UHGV virus genome: UHGV-0144957
Length of the DNA stretch: 50,831 nt
Reading direction: 5' to 3' (one strand)
From: a virus
Part shown: piece by piece, positions 8,989-45,582 of the stretch
Numbering within the stretch: the stretch's first letter is position 1
Layout of the letters: each line of letters begins with the position of its first letter
Position numbers and translations under genes: made by a program
The notes under the pieces: model-generated
What the model was told of the DNA's origin: nothing
Seen by the model: only the letters and a program-made list of their open reading frames with translations
The model's database searches: none

Positions 8989-9762
8989 ATGGAACACGGA
9001 TATGTCAAGCTTTGGCGGAAATGTTTAGACAGCGGATTGCTTCAAAATGGCCCCGCATGGCAGCTTTTTGGATACTTGCTGCTCAAGACTACGCACAGGC
9101 CGCATCGCCAGATTATCGGTGGCATGGTTTTTGAGCTTGAGCCGGGGGAAGTCATCTTTGGGCGAGCTAAAGCAGCCTCTGATCTGGGGCTGAGCGAAAA
9201 GCAGGTAAGAACAGCTTTTGAGCTGCTTAAAAAACTCGAAATTGTGGCCAGCAGATCGACCAACCGCTGCACGGTGGTTTCTTTTGTTAATTGGCATAGA
9301 TACCAAGATGAAGGGCCAGCAGGAGGCCAACAAGAGGGCCAGCCGCAGGGCCAACAAGAGGCCAGCAGAGGGCCAGCAGAGGGCCAGCAGAGGGCCACAA
9401 ACAAGAATGAAAGAACAAAGAATAAAGAAGAAGAAAAGAAAGTAAGTAAGGCGCGGGCGCGCGAGAAGGACGACCGCACAGAAAGCCGGGCGAGCTATGA
9501 CTCAATGGTGGCGGAATATGCATCGTCCCCCGGATTGAGATCCGCGCTCGGTGATTTCATCGTCATGCGCCAGCGCATCCGCGCACCGGTGACAAACGCG
9601 GCATTGAAGCAAACGTTTCGTGAACTGGACAAGATGGCTGGCGATAATGAAAGCCTGAAAGCGGCGATTGTGGAGCAGAGCGTACAGCGTGCATGGCGGG
9701 GAGTTTTCCCCCTGCGTGAAAATCCCAAAATTCAATCTGACCCGTGGGCAGGCGCGATATGA
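8989..9762 (+). CDS. replication initiation protein (lambda O / DnaD-like N-terminal domain) with internal iteron-encoded low-complexity linker
   Basis: The N-terminal winged-helix-like region WRKCLDSGLLQNGPAWQLFGYLLLK...IFGRAKAASDLGLSEKQVRTAFELLKKLEIV is typical of phage replisome organiser N-domains. The central Q/G/P-rich linker is encoded by tandem DNA repeats. Confidence 0.55.
   Translation: MEHGYVKLWRKCLDSGLLQNGPAWQLFGYLLLKTTHRPHRQIIGGMVFELEPGEVIFGRAKAASDLGLSEKQVRTAFELLKKLEIVASRSTNRCTVVSFVNWHRYQDEGPAGGQQEGQPQGQQEASRGPAEGQQRATNKNERTKNKEEEKKVSKARAREKDDRTESRASYDSMVAEYASSPGLRSALGDFIVMRQRIRAPVTNAALKQTFRELDKMAGDNESLKAAIVEQSVQRAWRGVFPLRENPKIQSDPWAGAI
9311..9393 (+). repeat. iteron-like direct repeats: GGCCAACAAGAG x2 and GCCAGCAGAGG x3
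   Basis: Tandem 11-12 bp repeats lie inside the replication gene. They are immediately followed by a purine/AT-rich tract (9395-9445). Confidence 0.5.
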
Positions 9763-18178: not shown

Positions 18179-18198
18179 TGCGAACCTTGTTCACGGTG
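18179..18198 (+). promoter_or_regulatory. conserved late-promoter motif copy 2
   Basis: TGCGAACCTTGTTCACGGTG, 34 nt upstream of the portal ATG. Confidence 0.5.
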
Positions 18199-20508: not shown

Positions 20509-21283
20509 AATCCTCCGCGCCATCAAGCCCAACGCGGGCATCCGGGCGAAATACCGGAAGCGGCTGGTGTCGCTTCTCGACGAGATGCAGCGTTCCGTCG
20601 TGTGGTGGCTGCGCGCCGAGTACAGGAAGCAGGAAACCCGCATAGCACAGGATGCGTCCCCTGCGAGAGACCTACAAGACCGCCTCAAGCGCCTGTTCCG
20701 GTACTGGACGAAGCGGTGGAGGGAAAGCGCGGAGAGTTTCGCACGGGAGTTCGTGGGCAGTACGAGGCGGCGCACGGAAGCCGGGATGAGGCAGGCGTTA
20801 AAAGACGCGGGCTTCACGGTGAGGATGGATAGGAGCAGGGCCATGAGCGACGTGGCGCGGGCCCTCTTCGAGGAAAACGTCAACCTCATCAAGTCCATCC
20901 CGCAGCACTATTTCACGGAAGTGACGGGGCTTGTACAGCGATCCGCCAGCATGGGCCGTGACGTGGAGTTCCTCGCCGACGAACTCCACAAGCGGTACGA
21001 GATCACCCGGCGCCGGGCCGAATTCATTGCCCGCGACCAGTCCAACAAGGCGACCGAGGCCCTTAAGCGGGTGCAGGACAAAGAGCTCGGCATCACCGAA
21101 GGCATCTGGGTGCATGTGCCGGGAAAGAAGACAAGCCGCCATACCCATCAGCTCATGAACGGGAAAAGGTTCGTCATCGCGGAAGGGCTCTACGACTCTG
21201 ACGTGAAGCGCAAGGTGCTTTGCGGCGAGCTTCCGGGGTGCCAATGTACGTATCGGGCCGTCATCCCTGAATTTGGAGACTAG
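20501..21283 (+). CDS. head morphogenesis protein, Mu F / SPP1 gp7 family
   Basis: Characteristic MuF-family segments, with ...HTHQLMNGKRF... near the C-terminus. The ATG at 20501 overlaps the portal stop. Confidence 0.75.
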   Translation: MPKILRAIKPNAGIRAKYRKRLVSLLDEMQRSVVWWLRAEYRKQETRIAQDASPARDLQDRLKRLFRYWTKRWRESAESFAREFVGSTRRRTEAGMRQALKDAGFTVRMDRSRAMSDVARALFEENVNLIKSIPQHYFTEVTGLVQRSASMGRDVEFLADELHKRYEITRRRAEFIARDQSNKATEALKRVQDKELGITEGIWVHVPGKKTSRHTHQLMNGKRFVIAEGLYDSDVKRKVLCGELPGCQCTYRAVIPEFGD

Positions 21284-21286
21284 TCT

Positions 21287-22999
21287 ATGCATCAAGGCAA
21301 AGGCGTCGCCTTCGACGCGGCCCCCTCGCAGCGGGCAACCGACGAGAACGGGTTCCTGCACGTCGGGGCGTCGCACATCACCAAAGCGGCGGTGAACCCC
21401 TACTACGGGAGGGAGGTTCCGGGCTGGCAGGAGGCCGGGCTTGACCCTGAGGCCGTCTACTACGGCCTGCGCGACCCGGAAGAACTTCAAGCATCGCTTG
21501 AGACATGGGCCGGGCTGCCGCTGCACATCGAGCACCATATCGACAGCGCGGAAGAACCGCAGAAGCTCACCCGCGTGGGAGCGGTGGGCACGGGCGCGGT
21601 CTGGAACCCGCCGTATGTGGATGCGCCGTTGACCGTGTGGGATCGGGCCGCCATCGACGCCATCGAAGATGGTTCCTTCCGGGAGCTTTCCTGCGCCTAC
21701 CGTTACGACCCGGATTTCACGCCGGGCAGCTACGAGGGCATCCCCTACGATTTCATCATGCGGAACATCCGCGGCAACCACGTCGCGTTGGTCGAGGAAG
21801 GGCGGGCCGGGCCGGACGTGGTGGTGGCGGATTCTCATCCAACTTCAACGAAAAAAGGAACGCTTATGGGCACGTTCAAGAAATGGTTCCGGGGCGCGCA
21901 AGACGACAACCCGGACATCGAAAAGCAGGAAGTGGAGCTTGCGCAGGCCATCATCGACCTGCACAAGGTCGACCCCGTGACAGGCGAAATCGTGGATGTC
22001 ACCGAAGACGAGGACAAGGCGGAGGAAATCCGCAAGCTCGTCGGTGAATTGTCCGCCAAGCTCGATCCTGAGGACGTCAAGAAGCTGACGGATTCCCTCT
22101 CCGATCTGGCCTACTCCAAGGCCACGGGCGACGGGAAAGCGGAGAAAAAGGACGCGCTGGACGAAGACGCCAGGAAAGCTATGGACGCCTGCGGGCTTGA
22201 TGCGGAAGACCCCGCCGAATCCCGTGCCTTTGCCGAAGGCGTGAAGTACGGCGAGAAACTGGAGCGTAACCCGGAAGAGCGCAGGAAGCTCGACCGCGAA
22301 CATGAGTCCGAGGGCATGAAAAAGGCTATGGATGCCTGCGGCCTCGACGCCGAGAACCCGCAGGAGAGCAAAGCCTTTGCCGAGGGCGTCAAGTACGGTG
22401 AGGAGTTGATCCGGGATCCTGATGAACGGCGCAAGCTCGACCGTGAGCATGAATCCGAAGGCGAACGCCGCGAGCTCGGCAAGGACGAGGACAAGGACGC
22501 GGCCATCAAGCGCATCCTCGCTGCCGTCCCCGGCCTCACGCCGGAACAGCAGAAGAAGCTGACCGACTCCCTGCAAGACCTCGCCTATTCCCCGGCGACC
22601 GGAGATGAAGACCCGGACGGCAAGGGAACCGCTCAGGACAGGGCATTCCGCCGCCGTGGGCCCCGCCCCCTCACCGCGATGGACGCCGCCCGCATCAAGG
22701 CATCCGCAGTCGCCGAAGCGCAGGAACATATGCGGAACCTCACCCGTGCCGTGCGCGACGTGCGCGGGCTGGTGGGCGAGCTTGACCCGTTGTCCTTCGA
22801 CTCCGCGTCCGACGTCTACGGCTACGCGCTGGAGCAGCTTGGGGAGGAGCCCCGCAAGTATCCCCGGCAGGCATGGCCCGGCATGATCGACATCCTCCGC
22901 AAGCAGAAGGCGGCCCCTTCCATCGCCCGCGACGCGGCCCCCGTCGGGCGCATGTCCGGCAGCTTCGCCGGGCTTTCCAACATCACCATTGCCGAATAG
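21287..22999 (+). CDS. prohead protease/scaffolding-like protein (DUF2213-type N-domain) with internal tandem repeats
   Basis: The N-domain contains ...[15 protein letters not shown]... The acidic C-terminal half has two ~49-aa tandem repeats (MDACGLDAE(D/N)P...[10 protein letters not shown]). Confidence 0.45.
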
Positions 23000-23009
23000 G
23001 AGGCACAAC

Positions 23010-23648
23010 ATGCCTTTGCAGTCCCAAGTCAATCTTTCCGTCGCTCCCGGCATCGCGGGCGACAAAGCGACGCCCGACCAGAGCATCTATACCCCGCTCA
23101 ACCCCCTGGCGGCGGTGGCCCTCCCCGTGGGGCGCTTCGTCTTCCCGGTCGTGGATTCCGGCGTGATCGACAACACGCGGGCCACCAACGTCGCGGGTGA
23201 GGCCACTGCCGTGCTCGGCTTCGTGGAGCGCGTCATCAACTATGTGAACTATGAACTGCTTTCTGACGGCACTTTGACCGTCCCGGCAGGCTCGAACCTC
23301 ACCGTCGCCGTGAAGGGCGACTATTGGGCCGTTTCCACGACCAAGGCCACGGTGGGGCAGGCCGTCCTTGCCTCCACCGCCGACGGTTCCATCAGCACCG
23401 GGACGCCCGACGGGACGCACCTCGATACGGGGTGGGTCGTCAAGACCCCCGGCGAAATCGGGGAACCGATCATCATCAGCAACTGGGGACAGGCCGCATC
23501 GTCTGGCTCCGGCGGCGACACCTCGAACCTGATGCGGAAAGATTTCAGCAACGCCACCGGTGCGCTCGGCGTAGCCAACGGCGGAACCGGCGCAACCACT
23601 GCGGAACAGGCCCGCACCAACCTCGGCGCAGCCGCCGCCGGAGCGTAG
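23010..23648 (+). CDS. head structural/decoration-like protein with fiber-type C-terminal motif
   Basis: RBS AGGAGG 6 nt upstream. The gene sits between the scaffold and capsid genes. The C-terminus GALGVANGGTGATTAEQARTNLGAAAAGA resembles the GGTGATTAxxARxNLG motif of phage tail-fiber proteins. Confidence 0.4.
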   Translation: MPLQSQVNLSVAPGIAGDKATPDQSIYTPLNPLAAVALPVGRFVFPVVDSGVIDNTRATNVAGEATAVLGFVERVINYVNYELLSDGTLTVPAGSNLTVAVKGDYWAVSTTKATVGQAVLASTADGSISTGTPDGTHLDTGWVVKTPGEIGEPIIISNWGQAASSGSGGDTSNLMRKDFSNATGALGVANGGTGATTAEQARTNLGAAAAGA

Positions 23649-23658
23649 GAGGAACGTT

Positions 23659-24672
23659 ATGAACCCGACATTTGAACAGGCCCGGCGCTACGGCTTCGTC
23701 TTCCCCCATGCGCGCATGTGGACCACGCCCGAAAACCGCGCCCGCATTGCGCAGGACGCCGCGCTCATCACCACGCCGAACACGACCGTCCCCGCCGAAC
23801 TGCTGGCGTATATCGACCCGATGGTCATCGAAATCCTGACCGCGCCCCGGCGCGCCCGTGAAATCTTCGGGGAAGAGAAAAAAGGCGACTGGACGACCCC
23901 GTACATGAAGTGGCGCGTGGACGAAATGACCGGGAAGACCGAGCCGTATTCCGACTATGCCAACGGCACGACTTCGGGCGTGAACTCCGAATGGCAGACC
24001 CGCGTGCAGTATGTCTTTCAGACGTCCATCACCTACGGCGACTTTGAAGTGGACATGTCGAGCACGGCGAAAGTCAACCTTGCGGCCTCCAAACAGCGCG
24101 CGGCGGCCAACGTCATCGACATCGACCAGAACCGTTTCTACCTGCTCGGCGTCGCCGGGAAGGAGATTTACGGCATCCTCAACGACCCGAACCTCCCCGC
24201 AGCCATCACCGCCGGGGCCACGGGAGAGGGCAGCTCCACGAAATGGGCCGACAAGACCACGGTGCAGATCTACAATGACGTCCTCGCCCTGTTCGCGCAG
24301 CTCTCCGAGCAGTCCAGCGGTCTTATCGACAAGGATACGCCGCTGAAGCTCTGCCTTTCCCCCGAACTGGCCGTGCGCCTCGGCGCGGCTACCGATTTCA
24401 ACGTGTCCGTGCTGGACATGCTGAAGCGGTACTTCAGCCGCATCGACATCGTGACCGTGCCCGAACTGCACAGCATGACCGCCGGGGAAACCATGTTCCT
24501 CATCGCTCCCGAGGTGAACGGGCAGCGCTCCGGAACGCTGGCCTTCGGCGAAAAGATGCGTGCGGGCCGCGTCGTGCCCGACCTGTCCAGCTTCCGCCAG
24601 AAGTTCGTCGGCACCACCTACGGCGGCATCGTGCTCATGCCCTTTGCGTTCGCGCAAATGACTGGCATGTAG
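23659..24672 (+). CDS. major capsid protein (Mu gpT-like)
   Basis: 337 aa, positioned after the scaffold/decoration genes, with capsid-like composition. Confidence 0.65.
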   Translation: MNPTFEQARRYGFVFPHARMWTTPENRARIAQDAALITTPNTTVPAELLAYIDPMVIEILTAPRRAREIFGEEKKGDWTTPYMKWRVDEMTGKTEPYSDYANGTTSGVNSEWQTRVQYVFQTSITYGDFEVDMSSTAKVNLAASKQRAAANVIDIDQNRFYLLGVAGKEIYGILNDPNLPAAITAGATGEGSSTKWADKTTVQIYNDVLALFAQLSEQSSGLIDKDTPLKLCLSPELAVRLGAATDFNVSVLDMLKRYFSRIDIVTVPELHSMTAGETMFLIAPEVNGQRSGTLAFGEKMRAGRVVPDLSSFRQKFVGTTYGGIVLMPFAFAQMTGM

Positions 24673-24749
24673 AGCCTCTCCCTTCCCCCATGTGAAAGCC
24701 CCAACCGCCTGTTTAACGGTTGGGGCTTATTTGCCTCTTTGGGAGCTGT

Positions 24750-25016
24750 TCAGTAATGATAGCGGCATTGGAGTACGATCAGGGCTTCGCTCTTTTCGTC
24801 CAGCTTATAGACGAGCCGATCCTCCTGATTGATGCGTCGTGACCAGCATCCGGAAAGATCGAACCGGAGCGGTTCCGGCTTGCCTAGCCCTTCAAAAGGA
24901 TTCCGCATGGCATCGCGCAGCAATTCGTTGATCCGTTTGACCGTGCGCTTGTCCGCATGCTGCCAATAGAGGTAGTCCTCCCACGCCTGCGGCGTCCACG
25001 TAAGCAGCATGCTCAA
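24750..25016 (-). CDS. yoeB: YoeB-family toxin (RelE superfamily mRNA interferase)
   Basis: Near-colinear with E. coli YoeB: WTPQAWEDYLYWQ...DKRTVKRINELL...NPFEGLGKPEPL...SGCWSRRINQEDRLVY...LQCRYHY. Confidence 0.85.
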   Translation of the reverse strand: MSMLLTWTPQAWEDYLYWQHADKRTVKRINELLRDAMRNPFEGLGKPEPLRFDLSGCWSRRINQEDRLVYKLDEKSEALIVLQCRYHY

Positions 25017-25267
25017 TCCTCCAGCTCATGCGGCATGGCCTTGCCCGCATCGGCGGCCTGCATCGCTTCCCTGAGCCGTGCGGCGTTGGCGGGCGAACGG
25101 AGCAGATACGCCGTCTCCATGATGGCGTTATAATCCTCAAGCGACATCATGACCACAGAGGGCGATTTTTGCCGAGTAATGATGACCGGCTCATGGTGAT
25201 CGCAGACGCGGCTCATGGTTTCCGCAAGGTTCTGCCGGGCTTCGGAGTAGGTAATGGCCTGTGACAT
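25013..25267 (-). CDS. yefM: YefM-family antitoxin
   Basis: MSQAITYSEARQNLAETMSRVCDHHEPVIITRQ... Strong RBS AAGGAGG. 4-nt overlap with yoeB. Confidence 0.8.
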   Translation of the reverse strand: MSQAITYSEARQNLAETMSRVCDHHEPVIITRQKSPSVVMMSLEDYNAIMETAYLLRSPANAARLREAMQAADAGKAMPHELED

Positions 25268-25369
25268 GACGCCTCCTTTATTTTGTACAAAAATACGTAC
25301 AAACAAGGCAGGCGTCAAGAATAAAAGGCGGCTCCGAAGAACCGCCTTTTCTACCATATTCTTTTCTCG

Positions 25370-25825
25370 TTAGAATCCAATCCAGCCGAAGCCTTTGGCC
25401 ATGATCGCGGCAAGGGCAAAGGCTATGGCGAACTGCCATTTGAGCAGATCATATTTGACCTTTTCAACTTCGCCACGCACTTTTTCGATCTCAGTCCGTA
25501 AGCGGGCTTCGGTTTCCTTTACCTCGCCACGGACTTTTTCCGTCTCGCCACGGATCTTCTCGATTTCTACCGTCAACCGCGCTTCCGTTTCCTTCATTTC
25601 GGCACGGATTTTTTCAGTTTCCCCGCGAACCTTTTCCAGTTCGACTTGTAAGCGCAACTCGGTTTCGCGCAGGTCTTCTTTGGTCGCGGACTTATCCTCA
25701 CGCTTTTCCAGCACCTCTACAAGAGCGTCGAACTGCTCGGCAGTAAACGCTTTTTCCAGTTTTTTCCCGGTATCGAACAGCAACATGGGGGAATCCCTCC
25801 GTTGGTAAAGTCTTATATGATTCAT
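25370..25825 (-). CDS. DUF1640-like coiled-coil membrane-anchored protein
   Basis: Repeated TEKVRGEV(K/E)ETEARL heptad-like units plus a C-terminal TM helix LLKWQFAIAFALAAIMAKGFGWIGF. The encoding DNA contains matching tandem repeats. Confidence 0.45.
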   Translation of the reverse strand: MNHIRLYQRRDSPMLLFDTGKKLEKAFTAEQFDALVEVLEKREDKSATKEDLRETELRLQVELEKVRGETEKIRAEMKETEARLTVEIEKIRGETEKVRGEVKETEARLRTEIEKVRGEVEKVKYDLLKWQFAIAFALAAIMAKGFGWIGF

Positions 25826-25841
25826 GCAGGGTTGCCAAGGA

Positions 25842-26123
25842 TTACTCTAGCATCATCCTGTTCGAGGTCTTCGCGGCACGGATGGCAAGGTGCATGTCGT
25901 CAAGTGCGGATTCGAGGTTTTGCCGGGCGATGTAGGTCGGGGCGGTCATGAGCTGGACAAGCGCGTCAACGGGCGTATTCCCGGATAACGAGACGTACCG
26001 GAGCAGTTCGGGATACGTCCCCTGCGTCACCCGACGGAAGTCCCGTTCCAGCCCATAAGCCTGCTCGCGGATCAGGGCTGCAAGCTCAATCCATTCCTGC
26101 TCAAGCCGTTCAAGCGCCCTCAC
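25842..26123 (-). CDS. small helical hypothetical protein (93 aa) abutting the CRISPR array
   Basis: ORF track. It ends 18 bp from the trailer-end CRISPR repeat. A weak resemblance to HepT/HI0074-type helical proteins could not be supported by a motif. Confidence 0.4.
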   Translation of the reverse strand: MRALERLEQEWIELAALIREQAYGLERDFRRVTQGTYPELLRYVSLSGNTPVDALVQLMTAPTYIARQNLESALDDMHLAIRAAKTSNRMMLE

Positions 26124-26141
26124 GCGGTCGCGGTAGATAGG

Positions 26142-26388
26142 CTTCTAAGCCGCCTACACGGCGGATAATAGGACTCTTGTGGGCGTGCTTAATTTGTGAG
26201 ACTTCTAAGCCACCTACACGGCGGATAATTGGCTGCGCGAGCACGTCGATCCGTTGTTGGCTTTCTAAGCCGCCTACACGGCGGATAACTTCTGGTTGAG
26301 CTTCTAAGCCGCCTACACGGCGGATAATTTCCCCCTAAGAGTTGAGTTTGATGCCGGAAACTTCTAAGCCGCCTACACGGCGGATAAT
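26142..26388 (-). CRISPR. orphan CRISPR array, 5 repeats x 28 nt (type I-F-like), spacers 32/32/11/32 nt, no cas genes
   Basis: Repeats at 26142-169, 26202-229, 26262-289, 26301-328 and 26361-388 read CTTCTAAGCCGCCTACACGGCGGATAAT, with single-nt variants in the 2nd and 3rd. The reverse complement ATTATCCGCCGTGTAGGCGGCTTAGAAG matches the I-F consensus GTTCACTGCCGTATAGGCAGCTAAGAAA at 20/28 positions. It has the same 5-bp stem, 5-nt loop and CTTAGAAG handle. The AT-rich leader lies on the right (26389 onward), so the array is transcribed from the minus strand. Confidence 0.8.
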
Positions 26389-26597
26389 AAGAAATATTTG
26401 ATAACTCCTTTTTACTTTTTAGTGGGTTGCATCAACAGCCTTATCAAAACCTTCGTTTTCATGGCTACTTTACAACCACCTTATTTCAAAAGATTTTCCC
26501 AGACAACTTTTTATGAAGCTGGAAGAATCCATAAGAGAGTATGGGGAGTACCATTGCTGGCTGTGATAGGCTCTTTCATCAAGTAAAAGGATTGACA

Positions 26598-26685
26598 GAA
26601 ACACCCCACGTGCGTGGGGAAGACTTGGCTCCGGTGGAATTGACGTTGAGTGTCGGGGAAACACCCCCACGTACGTGGGGAAGAC
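26598..26685. CRISPR. putative 2-repeat mini-array (27/28-nt palindromic repeats, one 33-nt spacer)
   Basis: GAAACACCCCACGTGCGTGGGGAAGAC (26598-624) and GAAACACCCCCACGTACGTGGGGAAGAC (26658-685) are separated by 33 nt. The reverse complement GTCTTCCCCACGCACGTGGGGTGTTTC is reminiscent of I-E-type repeats. The mini-array shares the AT-rich region 26389-26597 with the larger array. Confidence 0.4.
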
Positions 26686-26726
26686 CTCTCTTGCTAAAGA
26701 GTGTTGGCAAGAGTTAAATTGAAAAG

Positions 26727-26747
26727 TCATTGGAAAAGCCCCGTTCA
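26727..26747 (-). terminator. terminator hairpin downstream of gene 26769-27380
   Basis: AGCCCCG-TTCAGGG-CGGGGCT stem-loop, with a T-run on the minus strand. Confidence 0.4.
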
Positions 26748-26768
26748 GGGCGGGGCTTTAAAAAGATT

Positions 26769-27380
26769 CTACCGTAACAAGCTGCAGTCGTCGGCTACCA
26801 CATTACCCAGTGCCATACCTTTAACCGTACACATGAGGGAAACTTTCCCACCTTTTCTTAAAGACGCGGCAGAATCCGTTTGCCCGCGTTCCAAATCGGC
26901 AAAAATATTTTCCAAGAAGCCTGTCCCTTCGAGGGTCAATCTTGCCAGCCCGGTAACGGATTTGGATATATCAGTTACTGTTCCAGTAATAATAATCTCT
27001 TTTCCTTTATATTTTTGGTCAGCGGCAATCTCGTTGGACTTGTACTCACGGACGAGCTGGACAGACGTGATCCGAGGCATTTTTGCTATTTTCTCCTGCT
27101 CGGCTGCGGCTCGCTCAGCTTGTTTACGCAGTTTATACTCTTCATTGGCAGCTTCAATACGGGCTTTCTCTTCTGGAGTTTGCGTTACCGCCTTGAATGC
27201 TCCAATAGCGAAGAAGATAAGGAAAATATAGCCTATCCATTTGATAATTTTTTTCCCGAATATCCCTGATGAACTCCCTTTTTTTCTGTCAGCATCAGTT
27301 ACAGGACGCCCGCATTTAGGGCAAGCCGCTGCGGAAGTCGAAACTTTGGATTTGCAATCCGGGCATTTGAAGGTAGCCAT
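26769..27380 (-). CDS. zinc-ribbon + TM + OB-fold (tRNA_anti-like) domain protein
   Basis: N-terminal CPDCKSK...CPKCGRP ribbon. TM helix IIKWIGYIFLIFFAIGAF. A coiled linker. C-terminal OB-fold-like region (GKEIIITGTVTDISKS...). The gene sits on an AT-rich island. Confidence 0.5.
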   Translation of the reverse strand: MATFKCPDCKSKVSTSAAACPKCGRPVTDADRKKGSSSGIFGKKIIKWIGYIFLIFFAIGAFKAVTQTPEEKARIEAANEEYKLRKQAERAAAEQEKIAKMPRITSVQLVREYKSNEIAADQKYKGKEIIITGTVTDISKSVTGLARLTLEGTGFLENIFADLERGQTDSAASLRKGGKVSLMCTVKGMALGNVVADDCSLLR

Positions 27381-27476
27381 ACATCATCCCCCTTATTTAT
27401 AGATGAGGCTATCATGGCATAGGCCGTTTCAAAAATCCACCGCCGCCGCTCCGAAAGGGGCTTTTGTTTTGCCCTG

Positions 27477-27496
27477 TGCGAACCTTGTTCACGGTA
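27477..27496 (+). promoter_or_regulatory. conserved late-promoter motif copy 3
   Basis: TGCGAACCTTGTTCACGGTA follows a terminator-like hairpin (GCTCCGAAAGGGGCTTTTGTTTT), 48 nt upstream of ATG 27544. Confidence 0.5.
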
Positions 27497-27543
27497 CATC
27501 ATTTCTTTTTTTCAGGGCATCATCCTGAAAAAGGAAGGTCCGC

Positions 27544-27741
27544 ATGTACGTTGAAAATACCAATTATTGGGTTGAGGTTGTGTTGCGGCAGTTAAAGGGG
27601 TTTGTCCCCAAGGGCGAGCCTGTCCATTTTCACATTTGTTTTTCCATGGTGGGGGGGGAACCCACGATAGATTTCACGGCTGTTCAGGTTTTTGATGAGG
27701 AAGATCAACTACAACCTCAAACCGAACCCGCGATGTGCTAG
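27544..27741 (+). CDS. hypothetical protein (65 aa)
   Basis: Good RBS AAAAAGGAAGG and late-promoter motif copy 3 upstream. Convergently overlaps the next gene by 68 nt. Confidence 0.35.
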   Translation: MYVENTNYWVEVVLRQLKGFVPKGEPVHFHICFSMVGGEPTIDFTAVQVFDEEDQLQPQTEPAMC

Positions 27742-28039
27742 AATCGGATGTTTCCCGGTGCCCATCCGCCTTCAGACTTGCGGCAATCACGGCCACGCCA
27801 AAGCCGCCTCCAGCCTTGCCAGACTTGCTGGCCGTAATGGCAATATCAAAAGCCACGGTCTGCAATTGGGTTTGGGAATGAAACGCTTCGGGGTTCTTGA
27901 TCCGTTCAGGGCCATTTTCTTTAGCACGGTAGTACGGATTGATGAGCGCCCCAGAGCCCCGCAACCGCGTCTGCGCGCCGTGGATGCCCTCGGCGATCTG
28001 GCACAGCGTTTCTTCTACAAAGCTCTTCAAGTCCATCAT
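27674..28039 (-). CDS. hypothetical protein (121 aa)
   Basis: ORF track. Globular-looking composition. I have a vague recollection of similarity to small domains associated with trypsin-like/defence modules (AFDIAITASKSGKAGGGFGVAV...), but this is unverified. Confidence 0.35.
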   Translation of the reverse strand: MMDLKSFVEETLCQIAEGIHGAQTRLRGSGALINPYYRAKENGPERIKNPEAFHSQTQLQTVAFDIAITASKSGKAGGGFGVAVIAASLKADGHRETSDSSTSRVRFEVVVDLPHQKPEQP

Positions 28040-28068
28040 TATGGCCGAAACACTATGGAGGTTCAGCG

Positions 28069-28857
28069 ATGGAAAATTCCCCCTTGGCTTTTTTTGAGCA
28101 TGAAAAGTTCGGTTCTCTTCGTGTCGTCAGAAGGGAGCAGGGCGAACCGTGGTTCATGGCGAAAGACGTATGTGGATGTCTCGGTCTGGATACCAGTAAC
28201 CTTTCAAAAATGCTGGATGAAGACGAGCTTTCGACCTGCCCCGTACAGTATACGGATCAGGTCAGGAATCTTTCCGTTGTTTCCGAACCCGGCCTGTATT
28301 CCCTCATCCTCCGTTCCCGCAAGCACGAAGCCAAGGCGTTCAAGCGGTGGGTGACGCACGAGGTCATCCCCTCCATCCGCAAGACGGGCGGGTATCTGGC
28401 AACGAAACCCGACGATACCCCCGAAGCCATCCTTGCCCACGCCGTGCTGGTCGCGCAGGACACCATCAGGCGCATTGAAGCCGAACGCGACGATGCGATC
28501 CGCACCAAGGCCGAAATCAGTTCACGCCGCGAGGCCACCGCAATGGCGACCGCATCCGCCGCCGTCCGCAAGGCTGCGGCTCTTGAGAACGAGCTTGGGC
28601 GGGGCAGGGACTACAAGTCCGTGAAGGGCATCCCGTGGTTCCTTGACGTCTTTGCGGATACGCCAGCCGCGTACTCCGTCGCGGGACGCAAGCTCTCCGA
28701 TATGTCCCGCCGTATGGATTACGAGATCCGGGAGATCGAGGACAGCCGTTTCGGGAGCGTGAAGGCGTACCACGTCGACGTGATTGAAGCCTTCCGGCTG
28801 GCCCTGAAAAACGACCTGAACATGCTGGGCAAGTACCGCCTTCGCCGGGCGGCATAG
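28069..28857 (+). CDS. phage antirepressor, Bro-N domain + KilA-C-like (second copy)
   Basis: LAFFEHEKFGSLRVVRREQGEPWFMAKDVCGCLGL is a Bro-N domain. The C-terminal half is alignable with the gene at 4120-4893 (…VIPSIRKTGGY…PDDTPE…ILAHAVLVAQ…). Confidence 0.8.
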   Translation: MENSPLAFFEHEKFGSLRVVRREQGEPWFMAKDVCGCLGLDTSNLSKMLDEDELSTCPVQYTDQVRNLSVVSEPGLYSLILRSRKHEAKAFKRWVTHEVIPSIRKTGGYLATKPDDTPEAILAHAVLVAQDTIRRIEAERDDAIRTKAEISSRREATAMATASAAVRKAAALENELGRGRDYKSVKGIPWFLDVFADTPAAYSVAGRKLSDMSRRMDYEIREIEDSRFGSVKAYHVDVIEAFRLALKNDLNMLGKYRLRRAA

Positions 28858-28860
28858 CCT

Positions 28861-28878
28861 CGAATTTTGTTCACGGTG
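28861..28878 (+). promoter_or_regulatory. conserved late-promoter motif copy 4 (degenerate)
   Basis: CGAATTTTGTTCACGGTG lies 51 nt upstream of ATG 28929, the start of the head-completion/tail genes. Confidence 0.4.
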
Positions 28879-28928
28879 ATTTCTCTCCGTCCTTTTTGCC
28901 ATGATGACCAAAACAACGGAGGACAGAT

Positions 28929-29333
28929 ATGGCTAGACCCAAAAAGAATACCGCCCCGGAAACGGTGCAGGCGACGAAGGCGGATACCGTGATGGTCGCC
29001 CTGAACCGGACGACCGGGATCATGTTCCCGATGCCCGACGGACGCAAGGTGCTCATCGAAGGCAACGCCGCCAGCCTGCGCGGAAAGGAAAAGGGCGTGC
29101 TGCCCGTGGGCGCGTTCGGGCTGACGCGGGTGAATGCCGACGATTGGGCGTACATCGAAAAGACCTATGGCCCGCACATGGAGATTTTCAAGTCTGGCCT
29201 CATCTTCGCGCAGGCGCGCAAGGCCGACGCTGTGGACGAGGCCGACGAAAGGGCGGAACTGCGCCACGGCCTGGAACCCGTGGACGTAGCCAAGGCGCAG
29301 ACCGAACCGCTCCAGAGCAAGGCGGGGTTCTAG
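28929..29333 (+). CDS. hypothetical virion protein (134 aa)
   Basis: First gene of the resumed structural operon. RBS AACGGAGGACAG. Confidence 0.4.
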   Translation: MARPKKNTAPETVQATKADTVMVALNRTTGIMFPMPDGRKVLIEGNAASLRGKEKGVLPVGAFGLTRVNADDWAYIEKTYGPHMEIFKSGLIFAQARKADAVDEADERAELRHGLEPVDVAKAQTEPLQSKAGF

Positions 29334-29336
29334 CCC

Positions 29337-29768
29337 GTGTCCGTGGTCGTCTTTGATCCGCAGGAGTTCCGGGAGGCCTATCCGCGCTTCGTCGATCCGA
29401 AGACCGGGCAGCCTCTTCTGACTGACGCACAGCTTCGGCAGGCGTTCGACGTCGCCTGTCTGCTTCTGGACAACACGGACTCCTCCCCGGTTCCCTACGA
29501 CCCGGCCCACGGCGTCATGATCCGCAAGACGCTGCTGTACCTCCTCGTCTGCCATCTGGCGACGCTGGCCTTGTGGCCGACGGGACAGGCCGGGCCCGTG
29601 GCTTCGGCGACGGAAGGGACTGTCAGCGTCAGCTTTTCCGTACCTCAGAACACCGGGAAAGCCTTCTATGTGCAGACGCCGTGCGGACAGGCGTTTTGGC
29701 AGGCCATCCAGCCCTATGCCGTGGGCGGGCGCTACTATGCCGCCCGGTATTGGCATCCGTGGGGATAA
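29337..29768 (+). CDS. head-tail connector-like protein (DUF4054-like?)
   Basis: GTG start 3 nt after the upstream stop. 143 aa. The functional call rests on position alone. Confidence 0.35.
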   Translation: MSVVVFDPQEFREAYPRFVDPKTGQPLLTDAQLRQAFDVACLLLDNTDSSPVPYDPAHGVMIRKTLLYLLVCHLATLALWPTGQAGPVASATEGTVSVSFSVPQNTGKAFYVQTPCGQAFWQAIQPYAVGGRYYAARYWHPWG

Positions 29769-29772
29769 AACT

Positions 29773-30333
29773 GTGCCCGGAGAACTCGAAAAACTGCTCA
29801 AGCGGTACATCACCCCAGATATCGTCGTGAAGGCCGGGGTGCTCGAAAATGCGACGCGGGGCGAAGGCGGTACGCCCGTTGCGGAGTATGCGGCGTACAA
29901 CGAATACGGCGCAACAATCGAAATCCCTGAGCGGACGCAAACCTTGTACTTCAAGCGGAAGCGTGACGGCAGCGTCGGGAATCGGTTCGTAAAGAAGGGC
30001 AAAAGCGATTTTGCGCAGGATGCGACGGTCAAAGCCCACACCGTCACCATCCCCTCCCGGCCTTTCCTGCGGTCAACGCTCGATACCAAGGCGGACGTAT
30101 GGTGCGATAACCTCGCGAAAGCGTTGGAAACCGGACGGACGCCGAAAGAGGCGATGCGGCTTGTGGGGCGTCGCATGGCTGACGACATCCAAGCGACGAT
30201 CAAGAGCAATATGCCCCCGGACAACGCCGAGTCCACCAAGCGCCGCAAGAACGCCAAGGGCGCGGGAAAGGGGACGCTCATCGACTCCGGGAGCCTGCTC
30301 AAGTCCATTGATTACGAGGTAGTCAAAAGATGA
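29773..30333 (+). CDS. virion morphogenesis / HK97 gp10-like tail-component protein
   Basis: GTG start after GGGGA. The C-terminal TLIDSGSLLKSIDYEV resembles the DTGxLRxSI motif of the gp10 family. Confidence 0.4.
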   Translation: MPGELEKLLKRYITPDIVVKAGVLENATRGEGGTPVAEYAAYNEYGATIEIPERTQTLYFKRKRDGSVGNRFVKKGKSDFAQDATVKAHTVTIPSRPFLRSTLDTKADVWCDNLAKALETGRTPKEAMRLVGRRMADDIQATIKSNMPPDNAESTKRRKNAKGAGKGTLIDSGSLLKSIDYEVVKR

Positions 30334-30761
30334 ATCTTCATGAGCTGGTGCGTCCGCTTGTCGGCATCGTGAACCCTTTCCAGCCGGTTGTGATTCTCGT
30401 CTCTGTGGGGTTCACGGTGAACGCGCAGTATGAGCAGGTTCCGGCATGGGCCCCTGCCGTGGAGGTCATGGCGCAGCCTCAGCCTGTCGCGGACAAGACG
30501 CTGCAATTCCTCGTGCAGCAGCGCCAGAATACGATCTGGCACGATTTTTACCTTTCCGGGGACTGGTCGGCCCTTGATCGTCCGGCGGAGCAGGGCGGCG
30601 ATCTCGTCTATTGGGATGGCGCCGAGTGGCAGGTTGATCAGGTCTTGGAACGCTGGAACCCCACGGCGGGCTGGACGAAAATCCGGTGCGTAAAGCTCCG
30701 GGAAACCGCGCCGCCGGAAATCGGGGCCACGGAACCGCCCAAAGGGGAAGACGATGAGTGA
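30330..30761 (+). CDS. hypothetical tail-completion protein (143 aa)
   Basis: ATGA overlap. Position in the Mu-like morphogenesis block. Confidence 0.4.
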   Translation: MNLHELVRPLVGIVNPFQPVVILVSVGFTVNAQYEQVPAWAPAVEVMAQPQPVADKTLQFLVQQRQNTIWHDFYLSGDWSALDRPAEQGGDLVYWDGAEWQVDQVLERWNPTAGWTKIRCVKLRETAPPEIGATEPPKGEDDE

Positions 30762-31239
30762 CGGCATCCTCGTGCAGGCCCTTGGAGACTTCTGCAAACG
30801 CTACCTCGGCGATTCCGCCGTTGTTGTGCGCGGCTACGTCAACCGCGTGAGCAAGCCGAAGACGAAAAGCTACGTGCTCGTTACCCCCATGACCATGACG
30901 CGCCTTTCGACGAACCTGCATCAAACGGAGTGCGGCGGGACAGCCATCGTACAGCCGCAGCGCCGCCGGGTACAGCTCGACGTCTATGGGCCGACCGCCG
31001 CCGACCGCGCCCAAACGCTCGCAACGCTCCTGCGCGACGGCGTGGGGTGCCGCTTCCTCCAGACATACGGGATCGCCCCCCTGTACGTCGAAGACCCGCA
31101 GGACATGACGCAGGCGGAAGGTGACGAGCAGTACAATCCCCGCTTCATGCTCAACGTGCTGATTCAGGCTAACCGCGTTGAACACGTTGAGATGGATACT
31201 TTTACCGACGCGGACTTTTCCGTTCATCCGCTGGCATAG
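30754..31239 (+). CDS. hypothetical neck/tail terminator-like protein (161 aa)
   Basis: Overlapping start. It lies immediately upstream of the sheath gene. Confidence 0.4.
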   Translation: MSDGILVQALGDFCKRYLGDSAVVVRGYVNRVSKPKTKSYVLVTPMTMTRLSTNLHQTECGGTAIVQPQRRRVQLDVYGPTAADRAQTLATLLRDGVGCRFLQTYGIAPLYVEDPQDMTQAEGDEQYNPRFMLNVLIQANRVEHVEMDTFTDADFSVHPLA

Positions 31240-31257
31240 CAAACACAGGAGGGCGCA

Positions 31258-32763
31258 ATGAGCGTCAATGCCGACAAACTAGTCCAAATCATCCCCCGCA
31301 TCATCGAAGGCGGCACGCCGGGCCTGACCTTCGCCGGGCTCCTGCTCTCGCAGTCCGAGCTTTTGCCCGCAGGCCGGGTTGTGCAGTTCGCCAGTGCGCA
31401 GGCCGTGGTGAATTATTTCGGATCGCTCTCGGAAGAGGCGGGCATGGCTTCCATGTACTTTTCCGGCTACGTGAACACGACGAGCCTCCCGGACAAGATC
31501 TTCTTTGCCCGGTACAACGGCGATGCCGTGGGCGCATGGCTGCGCGGCGCGAAGTACACGGGCAATCTCGCCGTGTTGCAGGCAGTGACCAACGGCGCGA
31601 TGGTTATTTCCATCGACAACACGCCGTACACGCTTTCCTCCGTGGATTTGTCCGCCGCAACGAGCTTTTCGCAGGTGGCGGAGAAGCTCCAGACCGCGCT
31701 CACGACGGCGGGCGCGACCGGGGCGAAGGTGGCCTACTCCAGCCAGACCGGGGCCTTCCAGATCGACAGCCCGACGACCGGGACAAGTTCCGCCGTGGCC
31801 TTCCCGACGCCGCCGGAATCCGGGACCGACCTCGGCGCGCTTTTGCTGCTCACCGAGCAGGCCGGGGCCGTGCAGTCCGTGGGCATGGCCGCTCAGACGC
31901 TTCCCGACTGCATGACCAACGTGCTCCTGTACGCCCGCGATTGGGTGACGTTCGGGACTGTCTGGGAGCCTGAGCTTGACGACAAAATTTCACTTGCCCG
32001 GTGGTGCGCGGGGTATGACACCCGTTTCGCCTACGTGATGTGGGATACCGACAACGCCGCGCAGGTCGCGGGCTCTACGGCCTCGGCGGGGTATCAGATC
32101 GCCAAGGTGCTCGAACTCGACGGGACGGTTCCCGTGTTCAACACGCCTGAGCTTGCGGCGTGGGTCATGGGCACGGCTGCCTCCATCAACTTTGAAGAGA
32201 CGAACGGACGGCTCACCTTCGCGTTCAAGCAGGGCGAAGGGCTTGCCGTAACCTGCGACAACGACGAGAACTATGACGCGCTGATCGCCAACGGCTACAA
32301 CTGCTATGCGGACTTCGCCACGGCCTCCAGCCAGTTCAAGTTTTTCCAGAACGGGCAGGTTTCCGGCAAATGGGGCTGGCTCGACACCTACCTTGACGCC
32401 ATCGCCATCAAGGACGGCCTCCAGCTGAACCTCCTTGATCTGTTCAAGGCCGTAAAGTGCATCCCGTATAACGAGAGCGGCTACGGCATGATCCGCACGG
32501 CCTGCCTCGACACCATCACCCGTTTCCTCGACTTCGGGGCCATCCGCACCGGAGTGACCCTCTCGAACACCCAAAAAGTGCAGCTTCTTGCTGAAATCGG
32601 GCAGGACGTTTCCCAGACGCTTGAAACGCAGGGCTGGTACATGCAGGTCAAGGACCCCGGCGCGACCGTGCGCGGACAGCGCCAATCCCCGGAATGCAAA
32701 TTCTATTACATGGACGGCGGCAGCGTGCAGCAAATCGTCATGCCCGCCACGGCCATTCAGTGA
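31258..32763 (+). CDS. contractile tail sheath protein
   Basis: 501 aa, directly upstream of the tube and chaperone genes. RBS ACAGGAGGG. Confidence 0.6.
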   Translation: MSVNADKLVQIIPRIIEGGTPGLTFAGLLLSQSELLPAGRVVQFASAQAVVNYFGSLSEEAGMASMYFSGYVNTTSLPDKIFFARYNGDAVGAWLRGAKYTGNLAVLQAVTNGAMVISIDNTPYTLSSVDLSAATSFSQVAEKLQTALTTAGATGAKVAYSSQTGAFQIDSPTTGTSSAVAFPTPPESGTDLGALLLLTEQAGAVQSVGMAAQTLPDCMTNVLLYARDWVTFGTVWEPELDDKISLARWCAGYDTRFAYVMWDTDNAAQVAGSTASAGYQIAKVLELDGTVPVFNTPELAAWVMGTAASINFEETNGRLTFAFKQGEGLAVTCDNDENYDALIANGYNCYADFATASSQFKFFQNGQVSGKWGWLDTYLDAIAIKDGLQLNLLDLFKAVKCIPYNESGYGMIRTACLDTITRFLDFGAIRTGVTLSNTQKVQLLAEIGQDVSQTLETQGWYMQVKDPGATVRGQRQSPECKFYYMDGGSVQQIVMPATAIQ

Positions 32764-32774
32764 TGAGGTAAAAC

Positions 32775-33224
32775 ATGGCTGACAACTTCGGCAACATGAC
32801 GATTACAGCGGCAAATTGCACGCTTTTCCTGACGGTTCCCGGCCTCTACGACAGCCCCGTGCAGATCGAGGGGTTCAGCACCGACGCGATGGTCAGCGTC
32901 GCTGCGAATACGCCCATCGTCGCTGAAAAGGGCGTTGACGGGCATACCTCTTTTGGGTGGGTCCCGACCAACAAGGAAGTCACGATCACCCTCGCTGCGG
33001 ACTCGCCCAGCCGCCAGCTCATGGAAGATTGGGCGACATATCAGGAAACGGCACGGGAGGTGATGCTCTGCAATGCCGAGTTCGCCATGCCGAGCATCAA
33101 CCGGAAGATCACCGGGAAGCGGGGCGGCCTCACCTCCGTGCAGTCCAGCCCCAACGCCGCTCAGACCTTGCAGGCGAGCGCCTTCGTCATCACCTTCGAC
33201 CAGTGGACCGCGAGCCCGCTTTAA
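32775..33224 (+). CDS. tail tube protein
   Basis: 149 aa, located between the sheath and chaperone genes. Confidence 0.55.
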   Translation: MADNFGNMTITAANCTLFLTVPGLYDSPVQIEGFSTDAMVSVAANTPIVAEKGVDGHTSFGWVPTNKEVTITLAADSPSRQLMEDWATYQETAREVMLCNAEFAMPSINRKITGKRGGLTSVQSSPNAAQTLQASAFVITFDQWTASPL

Positions 33225-45087: not shown

Positions 45088-45582
45088 CTACGCGGCCCGC
45101 TCATACACCCGCGTCCCAATCTCGGCTATCTGCGGATCAACCTTTTCGAGCGCATTGCACAGCTTGGTTAGCGTTTTAAGCAGGTTGTGCCAGTGAAGGC
45201 CCCGGAAGTATGCGGGGCAGGTGTTCCGGGCGTCTTCGAGGAACGTGAGCCCCGCCCACATTCCGGCGGCCCATTGCGTCCAGCGGGTGGCATCGGTGGT
45301 TGCCGTCTGAACATCCCCGACGTGCCCGGCAAGGATATGGAACCGGGCATCTAGATCCCGCTTTGCGCCAGCGGAGAGCCTGCGTTTCTGTGTGTCGTCT
45401 CCGCATCGGTCAAGCCAGCGGTTGACCTTTTCGATCTGCTTGCCAAGGTCGCCGAGGTGAGGAATGGTTTCCGGCTTGAGGAGTGACAGCGCCACGGTGA
45501 TCATTGACAGGGCCAGAACGCAGCGGGTGTGTTGTATGGCTTCGTGCGGGTATGGGATGATGGGGGTGGTGGGTCTTCGCAT
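45088..45582 (-). CDS. hypothetical protein (164 aa)
   Basis: ORF track. Confidence 0.4.
   Translation of the reverse strand: MRRPTTPIIPYPHEAIQHTRCVLALSMITVALSLLKPETIPHLGDLGKQIEKVNRWLDRCGDDTQKRRLSAGAKRDLDARFHILAGHVGDVQTATTDATRWTQWAAGMWAGLTFLEDARNTCPAYFRGLHWHNLLKTLTKLCNALEKVDPQIAEIGTRVYERAA

Follow-up and report, generated by a model that had tools for sequence, protein, structure and literature searches.

Does the island that interrupts the head-to-tail operon of UHGV virus genome UHGV-0144957 encode a single system organised around its CRISPR arrays, or is it an assembly of unrelated genes, and what might the arrays be doing there? The window analysed here is the whole 50,831-nt stretch of this genome, and the island is a variable cargo slot of 4.3 kb at positions 24673-28928, between the major capsid gene (23659-24672; phrog_264, 2.6e-66) and a conserved phrog_2085 head gene (28929-29333), with all of its listed functional parts falling between 24696 and 28877. 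A preliminary description, made from the DNA letters, had placed in this interval a YoeB/YefM pair, a coiled-coil membrane protein, a 93-aa protein, two CRISPR-type arrays, a zinc-ribbon/OB protein, two small convergent open reading frames (ORFs) and a Bro-N antirepressor, and every one of these, together with an AT-rich patch and two copies of a late-promoter motif, is indeed present. It had also viewed the island as a defence/counter-defence hotspot whose small genes may work as one system with the arrays. Our analysis upholds the hotspot and not the system: we consider it probable that the island is a cargo slot holding independent modules, one of which is a CRISPR cassette for the guided exclusion of competitor phages by way of host Cas proteins.

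The island is a mosaic assembled in a fixed slot

The window carries a tyrosine integrase gene (43850-44911) and a primase-helicase gene, near-identical genomes of ~50.8 kb carry E217-type tail genes, and relatives occur in assemblies of Bilophila wadsworthia. On gene content and the provenance of its relatives, the phage is temperate and its host is B. wadsworthia. Relatives were collected by a capsid-protein search of IMG/VR, which yielded 45 loci with capsids 71-98% identical to that of the window and three more at 31%; individual loci are cited by their L numbers. A megablast search of window positions 20000-33000 against GenBank phages gave no match.

Across more than 40 relatives, the capsid gene and the phrog_2085 homologue are separated by anything from 48 bp to 7.3 kb. 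The slot is empty (48 bp) in L051, L052, L057 and L059, the capsids of which are 89% identical, measures 150 bp in L027 and reaches 1.0-7.3 kb in the remaining loci. As in other moron hotspots, the position is fixed, with a capsid gene 89-98% identical on one side and the phrog_2085 gene on the other, and the content varies or is missing. By blastn the island resolves into a patchwork whose segments are common to anywhere from 0 to 33 loci: the hairpin at its left edge is found in 33, the YoeB/YefM genes in none, the ends of the coiled-coil gene in ~10, the region of the 93-aa ORF in 12-27, the OB gene in 3-4, a 130-nt intergenic block bearing the late motif in 21-26, the module of two convergent ORFs in 6 (at 99% identity) and the Bro-N gene in ~28. 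The ORFs that occupy the slot across relatives cluster into 43 families. The island is compositionally patchy as first described, with a GC content of 0.445-0.49 at 26200-27600 vs 0.60-0.67 in the flanks.

This comparison excludes a gene order conserved in most close relatives. It also answers the suggestion that the genes at 25842-26123, 26769-27380 and 27674-28039 form a system with the arrays: when related phages were compared for co-variation with the array, none of these small genes followed it, and L048 and L049 have arrays with neither the Zn-ribbon/OB gene nor the 121- and 65-aa genes. The preliminary description had allowed for a random collection of morons, to be recognised by ordinary connector genes and no conserved neighbours at this locus in related phages. 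In four relatives the slot is empty, and conserved neighbours are lacking, which makes the island a mosaic of independent cassettes. Of the original proposal, the hotspot part survives and the single-system part is not supported. The region is a hypervariable cargo hotspot and not a co-inherited system. Recombination would have stacked these cassettes in the late operon of the phage, an E217-like temperate myophage with B. wadsworthia as its host. Most of them read opposite to the late genes, which would make them expressible from the prophage; this putative minus-strand block takes in the OB gene with its terminator, the I-E unit and I-F array with the leader between them, what is left of the Bro-N gene, the coiled-coil gene and YefM-YoeB.

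A dual CRISPR cassette without cas genes

Both CRISPR-type arrays lie in a 597-bp cassette (26136-26732) that contains no cas genes and is made up, in minus-strand order, of a type I-E repeat-spacer-repeat, a leader and five type I-F repeats. Homology to L038, L045 and L047 halts at 26135 and restarts at 26733, and an intrinsic-terminator-like hairpin that follows the Zn-ribbon/OB gene (26734-26760, minus strand) sits just beside the right junction.

The type I-F array (array A; 26142-26388, minus strand) has five 28-nt repeats (26361-26388, 26301-26328, 26262-26289, 26202-26229 and 26142-26169), spaced 60, 60, 39 and 60 nt apart along the plus strand and separated, in the direction of the array, by spacers of 32, 11, 32 and 32 nt. 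All five match Rfam CRISPR-DR4 on the minus strand, the best with 34.7 bits vs a gathering score of 35 and so formally just below it. They differ at 1-2 positions from the canonical I-F 28-mer (GTTATCCGCCGTGTAGGCGGYTTAGAAG) of cas-adjacent B. wadsworthia arrays, and four of the five start with ATTATCC, the usual form being GTTATCCGCCGTGTAGGCGGCTTAGAAG. The type I-F repeat has a stem-loop with an 8-nt 5'-handle; the predicted handle of the CRISPR RNAs (crRNAs) is CUUAGAAG, and all repeat stems in the cassette are intact. Adjoining it is the I-F leader (26389-26595, minus strand), in which ~135 nt next to the array are conserved. The leader is 78-83% identical to those of other phage-borne arrays, 67% to a second phage subfamily and 62-63% to host cas1-adjacent leaders (shuffled controls: mean 51%, maximum 57%); leader sequences form phage-specific subfamilies. 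Two ORFs called here, 26398-26586 on the plus strand and 26470-26730 on the minus strand, were rejected as genes, both being within the conserved non-coding leader.

On the other side of the leader stands the type I-E-like mini-array (array B; 26596-26685, minus strand), with two 29-nt repeats at a 61-nt periodicity. Its first repeat (26657-26685; GTCTTCCCCACGTACGTGGGGGTGTTTCC, with a 7-bp GC stem) is followed by a 32-nt spacer (26625-26656) and a terminal repeat (26596-26624) that lacks one G. The same repeat forms arrays of 3-5 repeats in other Bilophila phages, B. wadsworthia arrays of this type would be recognised by the sequence GTCTTCCCCACGYAYGTGGGGGTGTTTC, and no Rfam family matched the I-E repeats at E<=1. 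The array region had no blastn match among GenBank phages, and plasmids compared with it showed only a weak I-E/IV-like repeat resemblance, in Klebsiella and Enterobacter.

The two arrays constitute one mobile cassette, because the composite recurs: L100 has the I-E unit, I-F leader and I-F array in the same order at 84% identity (L100:3320-3900), L008 has it in part (2150-2550), and in L134 (1286-1800) an I-E repeat-spacer-repeat, whose terminal repeat is likewise without the G, is joined directly onto a truncated I-F repeat. Among the island proteins PADLOC recognised no significant Cas match, and tblastn of a Cas8f-Cas5f fusion from related phages (see below) against the whole window was empty. 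Having no adjacent cas genes, the array must therefore rely on host proteins.

The gene that the cassette would have entered can still be recognised. The listed 93-aa ORF (25842-26123) starts at a GTG at 26123 and is part of a 5'-truncated Bro-N remnant (25842-26135, minus strand) that comprises the last 97 codons of a 306-aa gene. This region is 85% identical to residues 209-305 of the 306-aa Bro-N protein of L024 (12226-13470); the full-length form scores 2.6e-8 for Bro-N and is intact in many relatives. The alignment begins upstream of the GTG, at the cassette junction, and DNA homology stops at the array boundary at 26135. By this alignment the 93-aa ORF is a stump left by insertion of the CRISPR cassette, which would have replaced the rest of the gene, and not a partner of the arrays. 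The idea that its product is an anti-CRISPR (Acr) or anti-CRISPR-associated (Aca) partner was likewise ruled out by the alignment to full-length Bro-N genes.

Capture of CRISPR elements by this slot has happened several times independently in the relatives, with three I-F repeats in L048 and L049 and an I-E repeat-spacer-repeat in L046 and L047. In L039 the same hotspot holds a solitary I-E repeat preceded by an I-E leader (L039:12750-12778), a candidate RNA anti-CRISPR (Racr). Some family members also have an I-F array of 10-12 repeats beside a homologue of the 164-aa gene found near the integrase at window 45088-45582 (minus strand), as in L016:5933-7297. The window has no array at 45088-45582, and the array cassette has therefore moved between two sites. 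A recurrent "113-aa ORF" beside other arrays was dropped from consideration, as it looks like an antisense shadow ORF.

The phage array copies a host type I-F repeat

In species-representative genomes the I-F repeat occurs only on Bilophila and Desulfovibrio contigs, and it is also present on fifteen IMG/VR contigs. The copy in B. wadsworthia ATCC 49260 is part of another prophage (ERF, DUF1351), a CI-type repressor being seen in the parallel locus L011. When 63 ORFs from 14 of the eighteen array-bearing loci (L001-L018) were scanned with Pfam, no Cas family appeared, and L002 and L011, scanned separately, had phage genes only; the genes recognised were integrases, Mu-like head genes, tail genes and Bro-N. 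Many Bilophila phages have arrays without cas genes, and 101 spacers sampled from these comprised 95 different ones; we found no paper on phage-borne arrays of B. wadsworthia.

A metagenome scan revealed more than 120 arrays with the host-type 28-mer, many of them directly downstream of complete cas2/3-csy1-csy2-csy3-csy4-cas1 operons (L084, L092, L116, L119, L122, L145, L154 and L160 are cas-adjacent). The Cas1f and Cas6f proteins of L116 are exact matches to the B. wadsworthia RefSeq entries WP_278594132.1 and WP_005024340.1. Since cas operons and B. wadsworthia proteins stand beside 28-mer arrays, the host possesses a type I-F system, and it is the repeat of this system that the phage array copies. 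L070, which has the closest Cas8f/Cas5f homologues, was rejected as the host, having 40% GC and a repeat that differs at 9 of 28 positions.

A spacer matches a rival phage, and I-F targeting occurs in nature

Spacer 1 of array A (TTTCCGGCATCAAACTCAACTCTTAGGGGGAA, 26329-26360) has a 32/32 match to IMG/VR contig 3300045988_148079 (L064), with 5'-CC, the type I-F protospacer-adjacent motif (PAM), immediately before the protospacer, which lies at the end of the scaffold/protease gene. This contig represents a syntenic phage whose head proteins are 32-50% identical to those of the window and whose capsid-side slot is essentially empty. It is also targeted, at 31/31, by a host array next to cas genes (L145), and L064 is therefore a phage of the same host group. 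The window contains nothing within 9 mismatches of its own spacers.

The reverse comparison, of 866 unique I-F spacers from 130 loci with the window, counted matches at 0-6 mismatches. The window phage is matched by 35 of the 866, among them 30 with a CC PAM and four that are perfect; one further listed row, with 14 mismatches, was left out as noise. None of the matched sites falls in the island, and they span window positions 271-49592 (for example 9353-9384, 21032-21063, 32185-32216 and 45257-45288). Spacers of phage-borne arrays also match other phages at CC PAMs, including the family of the window. To judge from these PAM-flanked matches, the I-F system is clearly active in nature.

Near-identical relatives (L028-L058), at the protospacers of L012 spacers, differ only in the PAM, with CC vs CA, CT or TC. 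These PAM-only differences look like natural CRISPR escape. At window 9312-9397, within the ORF at 8989-9762, there is an 11/22-nt tandem repeat (AGGGCCAGCAG) that a phage-borne spacer of L015 matches perfectly and, a second time, with 4 mismatches. Phage L008 is matched by two I-E spacers of a Bilophila prophage (L078); the two sites are adjacent, lie on opposite strands and are each flanked by AAT.

Other conflict genes in the slot of relatives

What the relatives hold in the slot ranges from AcrIF11-like genes with a Cas8f-Cas5f fusion, through HSDR_N nuclease-like genes, DUF7424 and OB-fold lipoproteins and other CRISPR arrays, to nothing. At least seven share an operon that encodes a 73-aa ribbon-helix-helix-like protein, a 463-465-aa fusion of an N-terminal Cas8f part to Cas5f, an AcrIF11_ADP_ribosyl protein (PF26151), a 56-aa ORF and a GNAT protein. 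The fusion is recognised by PADLOC as Cas8f (9.5e-24) and Cas5f (3.4e-24) and is 38-42% identical to host Csy1/Csy2. AcrIF11 ADP-ribosylates Cas8f and thereby blocks PAM reading. None of the genes of this operon is present in the window, and we found no paper on a solitary phage Cas8f-Cas5f beside AcrIF11.

Fusion genes were seen at L024:9796-11193 (minus strand) and in L020, L022, L023, L033, L042, L058 and L065-L069 (e.g. L065:9517-11606), of which L069 is an unrelated prophage that has the AcrIF11/Cas8f-Cas5f operon. The commonest pair in the slot (19-20 loci, e.g. L066:5422-7127) couples a 356-aa HSDR_N nuclease-like protein to a glycine-zipper membrane protein of 199-330 aa; PADLOC has no match for it, and it is a candidate two-gene defence module. 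Read from its gene families, the slot is strongly devoted to CRISPR and superinfection conflicts.

Probable exclusion of competitors and alternative roles

The role that we favour for the cassette can be laid out as a series of steps. The cassette would be transcribed on the minus strand from its conserved leader, and host Cas6f would cut the transcript into crRNAs; the upstream unit would be cut by host I-E Cas6e, if the host has a I-E system. The crRNAs would then load into the host Csy/Cascade complex, and the armed complex would destroy competitors that have a CC-flanked protospacer, such as L064, so that lysogen and prophage are both protected.

Several observations weigh against this role. 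Only one of the four full-length spacers has a known target: the third and fourth spacers of array A (S3 and S4) and the I-E spacer have none in IMG/VR, GenBank phages or plasmids, and all three are absent from the 866 collected spacers. For these three the IMG/VR comparison was made on seed-proximal 24-mers in which each sixth base was masked. The L064 spacer itself could have been inherited from a host array and not selected on the phage. One spacer of array A is 11 nt long, and four of its five repeats start with A and not the usual G. The I-E unit has none of the I-E leader that is present in L100, L141 and L078, and a G is missing from its terminal repeat. Finally, the phage is matched by 35 I-F spacers and does not have the AcrIF11-like operon of its sisters, so that an anti-CRISPR role of the array RNA is also attractive.

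Such a role, possible if on balance unlikely, would see the array transcripts soak up Cas6f and Cas7f or out-compete host crRNAs, as Racrs do, and so blunt I-F (and I-E) immunity. It would suit a phage under that much I-F targeting, 30 of the matches having the CC PAM, whose sisters hold an anti-I-F operon (AcrIF11_ADP_ribosyl and Cas8f-Cas5f) in the very slot where the window has its cassette; the crRNA from the 11-nt spacer unit would be aberrant, a solitary I-E repeat occupies the slot in L039, and Racrs have been reported near acr genes (PMC10651486). What speaks for guided interference instead is that all but one of the four I-F spacers, and likewise the I-E spacer, are of canonical length (32 nt), that the conserved leader is present, that one spacer is perfect against a rival phage with the correct PAM, and that by the SRUFinder definition these are an array and a mini-array, not solitary repeat units. 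The decoy and exclusion roles are not mutually exclusive and could coexist.

A more ambitious version, to which we give a small chance, would make the cassette an adaptation-competent, dual-type (I-E and I-F) parasitic CRISPR locus that both kills rivals by means of the host's Cas proteins and dilutes the host crRNAs directed at this phage, and the slot a CRISPR-warfare locus in which the sister phages take over Cascade. If this were true, the sister operon would disable the PAM-reading subunit of the host and supply a phage-encoded one, going beyond simple inhibition.

A reading of the arrays as inert debris, captured by illegitimate recombination from a host or phage CRISPR locus and without function in this phage, is quite improbable. 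The insertion did destroy a gene, and the short spacer, the variant first bases of the repeats, the degenerate terminal I-E repeat, the missing I-E leader and the three spacers with no known target would all fit this reading. Yet the stems are all intact, the 135-nt leader is ~80% identical across several phage lineages and falls into phage-specific subfamilies, arrays of this kind recur in many Bilophila phages with highly diverse spacers, and those spacers match other phages at CC PAMs. That the 93-aa, Zn-ribbon/OB and 121-aa proteins and the arrays make up one new defence system is hardly credible, since, despite their adjacency on one island and mostly on one strand, and despite L047, which has a I-E mini-array, the OB gene and the 121/65-aa pair, the 93-aa ORF is a gene fragment, each gene is found without arrays and arrays without the genes, the 121/65-aa pair is conserved without arrays in the baseplate hotspot of another lineage, and PADLOC, run on 10 island and flank proteins, returned nothing beyond coiled-coil noise.

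Other cargo and the late motif

Late motif. The 17-nt motif CGAAYYTTGTTCACGGT occurs four times in the window, always on the plus strand (12949, 18181, 27479 and 28861), with ~0.03 copies expected by chance. It precedes late gene blocks, the copy at 18181 standing before the portal gene, and equivalent positions are kept in relatives; the clade of 96-98% capsid identity retains it, and the 89% clade is without it. A late activator probably binds here. That two copies bracket the right part of the island holds as a fact of sequence. The first of these, copy 3 of 4 (CGAACCTTGTTCACGGT, 27479-27495), lies within the conserved 130-nt intergenic block (27368-27496) and would drive the 65-aa gene and, antisense through the 121-aa gene, Bro-N. 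Copy 4 (CGAATTTTGTTCACGGT, 28861-28877) is predicted to start late transcription anew downstream of the island, where the head-completion and tail genes lie.

Left part. A palindromic hairpin (AAGCCCCAACCG...CGGTTGGGGCTT; 24696-24728), with matches in both orientations, is likely a bidirectional terminator for the capsid gene on the plus strand and the YoeB operon on the minus strand. The YoeB toxin (88 aa; 24750-25016, minus strand) is a full-length match to Pfam YoeB_toxin (2.5e-37), and among the slots of the relatives it is seen only in the window phage. The YefM antitoxin (84 aa; 25013-25267, minus strand) matches PhdYeFM_antitox (1.1e-25); its gene shares 4 nt with yoeB, and its ribosome-binding site reads AAGGAGG. 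At 127 and 90 bits, YoeB and YefM are both over the cut-offs. A predicted sigma-70 promoter (TTGACG-17-TATTTT; 25284-25318, minus strand) overlaps TGTACA/CGTACA half-sites 12 nt apart, which we take to be a YefM-type operator by analogy with Escherichia coli yefM-yoeB. Both domains are thus present, with the antitoxin upstream, the genes overlapping and an autoregulatory operator predicted, as in type II toxin-antitoxin (TA) systems, and by these features the pair is intact and self-regulated. The neighbouring gene (25370-25825, minus strand) encodes a CCDC90-like (former DUF1640) coiled-coil protein with a C-terminal transmembrane (TM) helix (Pfam 6.5e-9), and its true start is probably the ATG at 25786. 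Homologues 51-65% identical occur in ten or more relatives, the central repeat region being found only in the window.

Right part. The gene at 26769-27380 (minus strand) encodes a membrane protein composed of a Zn-ribbon, a TM helix after it, a coiled coil and an OB (tRNA_anti-like) domain, with matches to PF12869 (1.4e-20) and Zn_ribbon families. Residues 43-201 match phrog_8545, "superinfection exclusion Sie-like" (4.6e-17), and by this profile and its predicted membrane anchor the product is a putative Sie-like membrane protein. The gene is present in L036, L038, L045 and L047, in the first three of these without arrays. Sequence searches of the PDB with this protein and with the 121-aa family were empty.

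The 65-aa ORF (27544-27741, plus strand) and the 121-aa gene (27674-28039, minus strand) converge and overlap by 68 nt at their 3' ends. The 65-aa ORF is probably a real gene: its length and 25 residues are kept in homologues of 49-62% identity, and it is called as a gene beside every 121-aa homologue. The 121-aa protein, Trypco2/Pepco-like, has an N-terminal helix, Gly-rich beta segments and a Pro/charged tail. It scores 6.9e-5 for Pfam Trypco2 (23.5 bits vs a cut-off of 24.2), and six of six homologues match Trypco2 at E values of ~1e-5 to 1e-4, just under threshold; its AlphaFold2 model is of low confidence, with a predicted local distance difference test score of 52. L027, L028, L044, L045 and L065 have the pair and no arrays in the slot. 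Homologues of the 121-aa protein are few, and those 55-68% identical lie in the spike/baseplate hotspot of another E217-like lineage, always with the convergent, 3'-overlapping 65-aa gene and then an antirepressor (pRha/P22_AR_N), often followed by YefM-YoeB and with a CCDC90-like gene nearby. By this conserved context, the unit is the 121-aa gene, the 65-aa gene and an antirepressor, and it is not linked to the arrays; the recurrence suggests either a shared cargo pool or a functional link of the pair with antirepressors. E217-like phages L201/L202 (1548-6987) and L205/L206 carry the CCDC90-like gene, the 121/65-aa pair, an antirepressor and YefM-YoeB in the spike/baseplate region.

The last gene of the island encodes a 262-aa Bro-N protein (28069-28857, plus strand), by family a predicted antirepressor (Pfam Bro-N 1.9e-20, 73.7 bits vs a cut-off of 25.6; phrog_130 Ant 9e-41), that is present in nearly all close relatives. 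A second antirepressor, with Bro-N and ANT/KilAC domains, lies in the early region (4120-4893, minus strand), so that the phage has at least two intact Bro-N proteins in addition to the stump.

Relation to known systems

Almost nothing has been recorded on the phage biology of the gut pathobiont Bilophila wadsworthia, and the island and its relatives offer a compact natural system for the study of CRISPR as a weapon between phages. Host I-F arrays, two types of phage arrays without cas genes, PAM-escape alleles and an operon of AcrIF11-like and Cas8f-Cas5f genes that alternates at one slot can all be read from sequence alone. The locus also teaches that genes side by side on a phage island need not form a system, one of the "unknown genes" being a stump from array insertion.

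Variable anti-defence slots are known from Mu-like Pseudomonas phages, with their acr locus in the head region, and from the P2/P4 defence hotspots. Like anti-CRISPR and moron hotspots in phage structural operons, the island occupies a fixed slot between morphogenesis genes in which near-identical phages differ in content, is enriched in defence and anti-defence functions and carries its own promoters and terminators. It differs in belonging to an E217-like family with another host, in its position after the major capsid gene and in having CRISPR arrays beside acr cargo. The YefM-YoeB pair resembles other type II TA systems in its full-length domains, antitoxin-first order, 4-nt overlap and promoter over TGTACA-type half-sites, and differs in being phage-borne, with stabilisation or abortive infection as candidate roles.

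Trypco1/2 ("Pepco") proteins have recently been reported as pore toxins of ~117 aa, pre-assembled beta-barrels that become active once a C-terminal tail is removed (bioRxiv 10.1101/2025.11.14.688446). With these protease-activated pore-forming effectors (see also Kaur 2020, PMC7159879) the 121-aa protein shares its size class, a consistent sub-threshold Trypco2 score, a predicted helix and beta-hairpin and the Pro/charged C-terminal tail. It differs in having no neighbouring protease or sensor: no trypsin- or caspase-like protease lies beside the gene, its neighbours in every context examined being the 65-aa ORF and an antirepressor. Membership of the Pepco/Trypco2 family is accordingly offered as a lead only.

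Repeat-mimic RNAs have been described as Racrs or solitary repeat units (Camara-Wilpert 2023, PMC10651486). The window is like these in having phage copies of host repeats without cas genes, at a locus that in relatives holds acr genes, and unlike them in its five and two repeats, its canonical 32-nt spacers and its matched, PAM-flanked target. Further counterparts are the arrays without cas genes that target competing phages in Clostridioides difficile prophages (Hargreaves 2014, PMC4173771; Boudry 2015, PMC4556805) and the mini-arrays of Sulfolobales viruses (Medvedeva 2019, PMC6858448), which likewise combine a temperate virus, host-matching repeats and spacers against related competitors, and for which the same role, superinfection exclusion through host Cas proteins, has been proposed. 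The window differs in its gut Desulfovibrionaceae host with a type I-F system, in that the role is here a predicted one, and in the joining of I-E and I-F units in one cassette that shares a leader region and lies in the head-gene operon. Overall, the island appears to bring known kinds of elements together in a new host; the joined I-E/I-F cassette is its unusual feature, and the AcrIF11-like and Cas8f-Cas5f operon of its sisters is a notable alternative occupant of the same slot.

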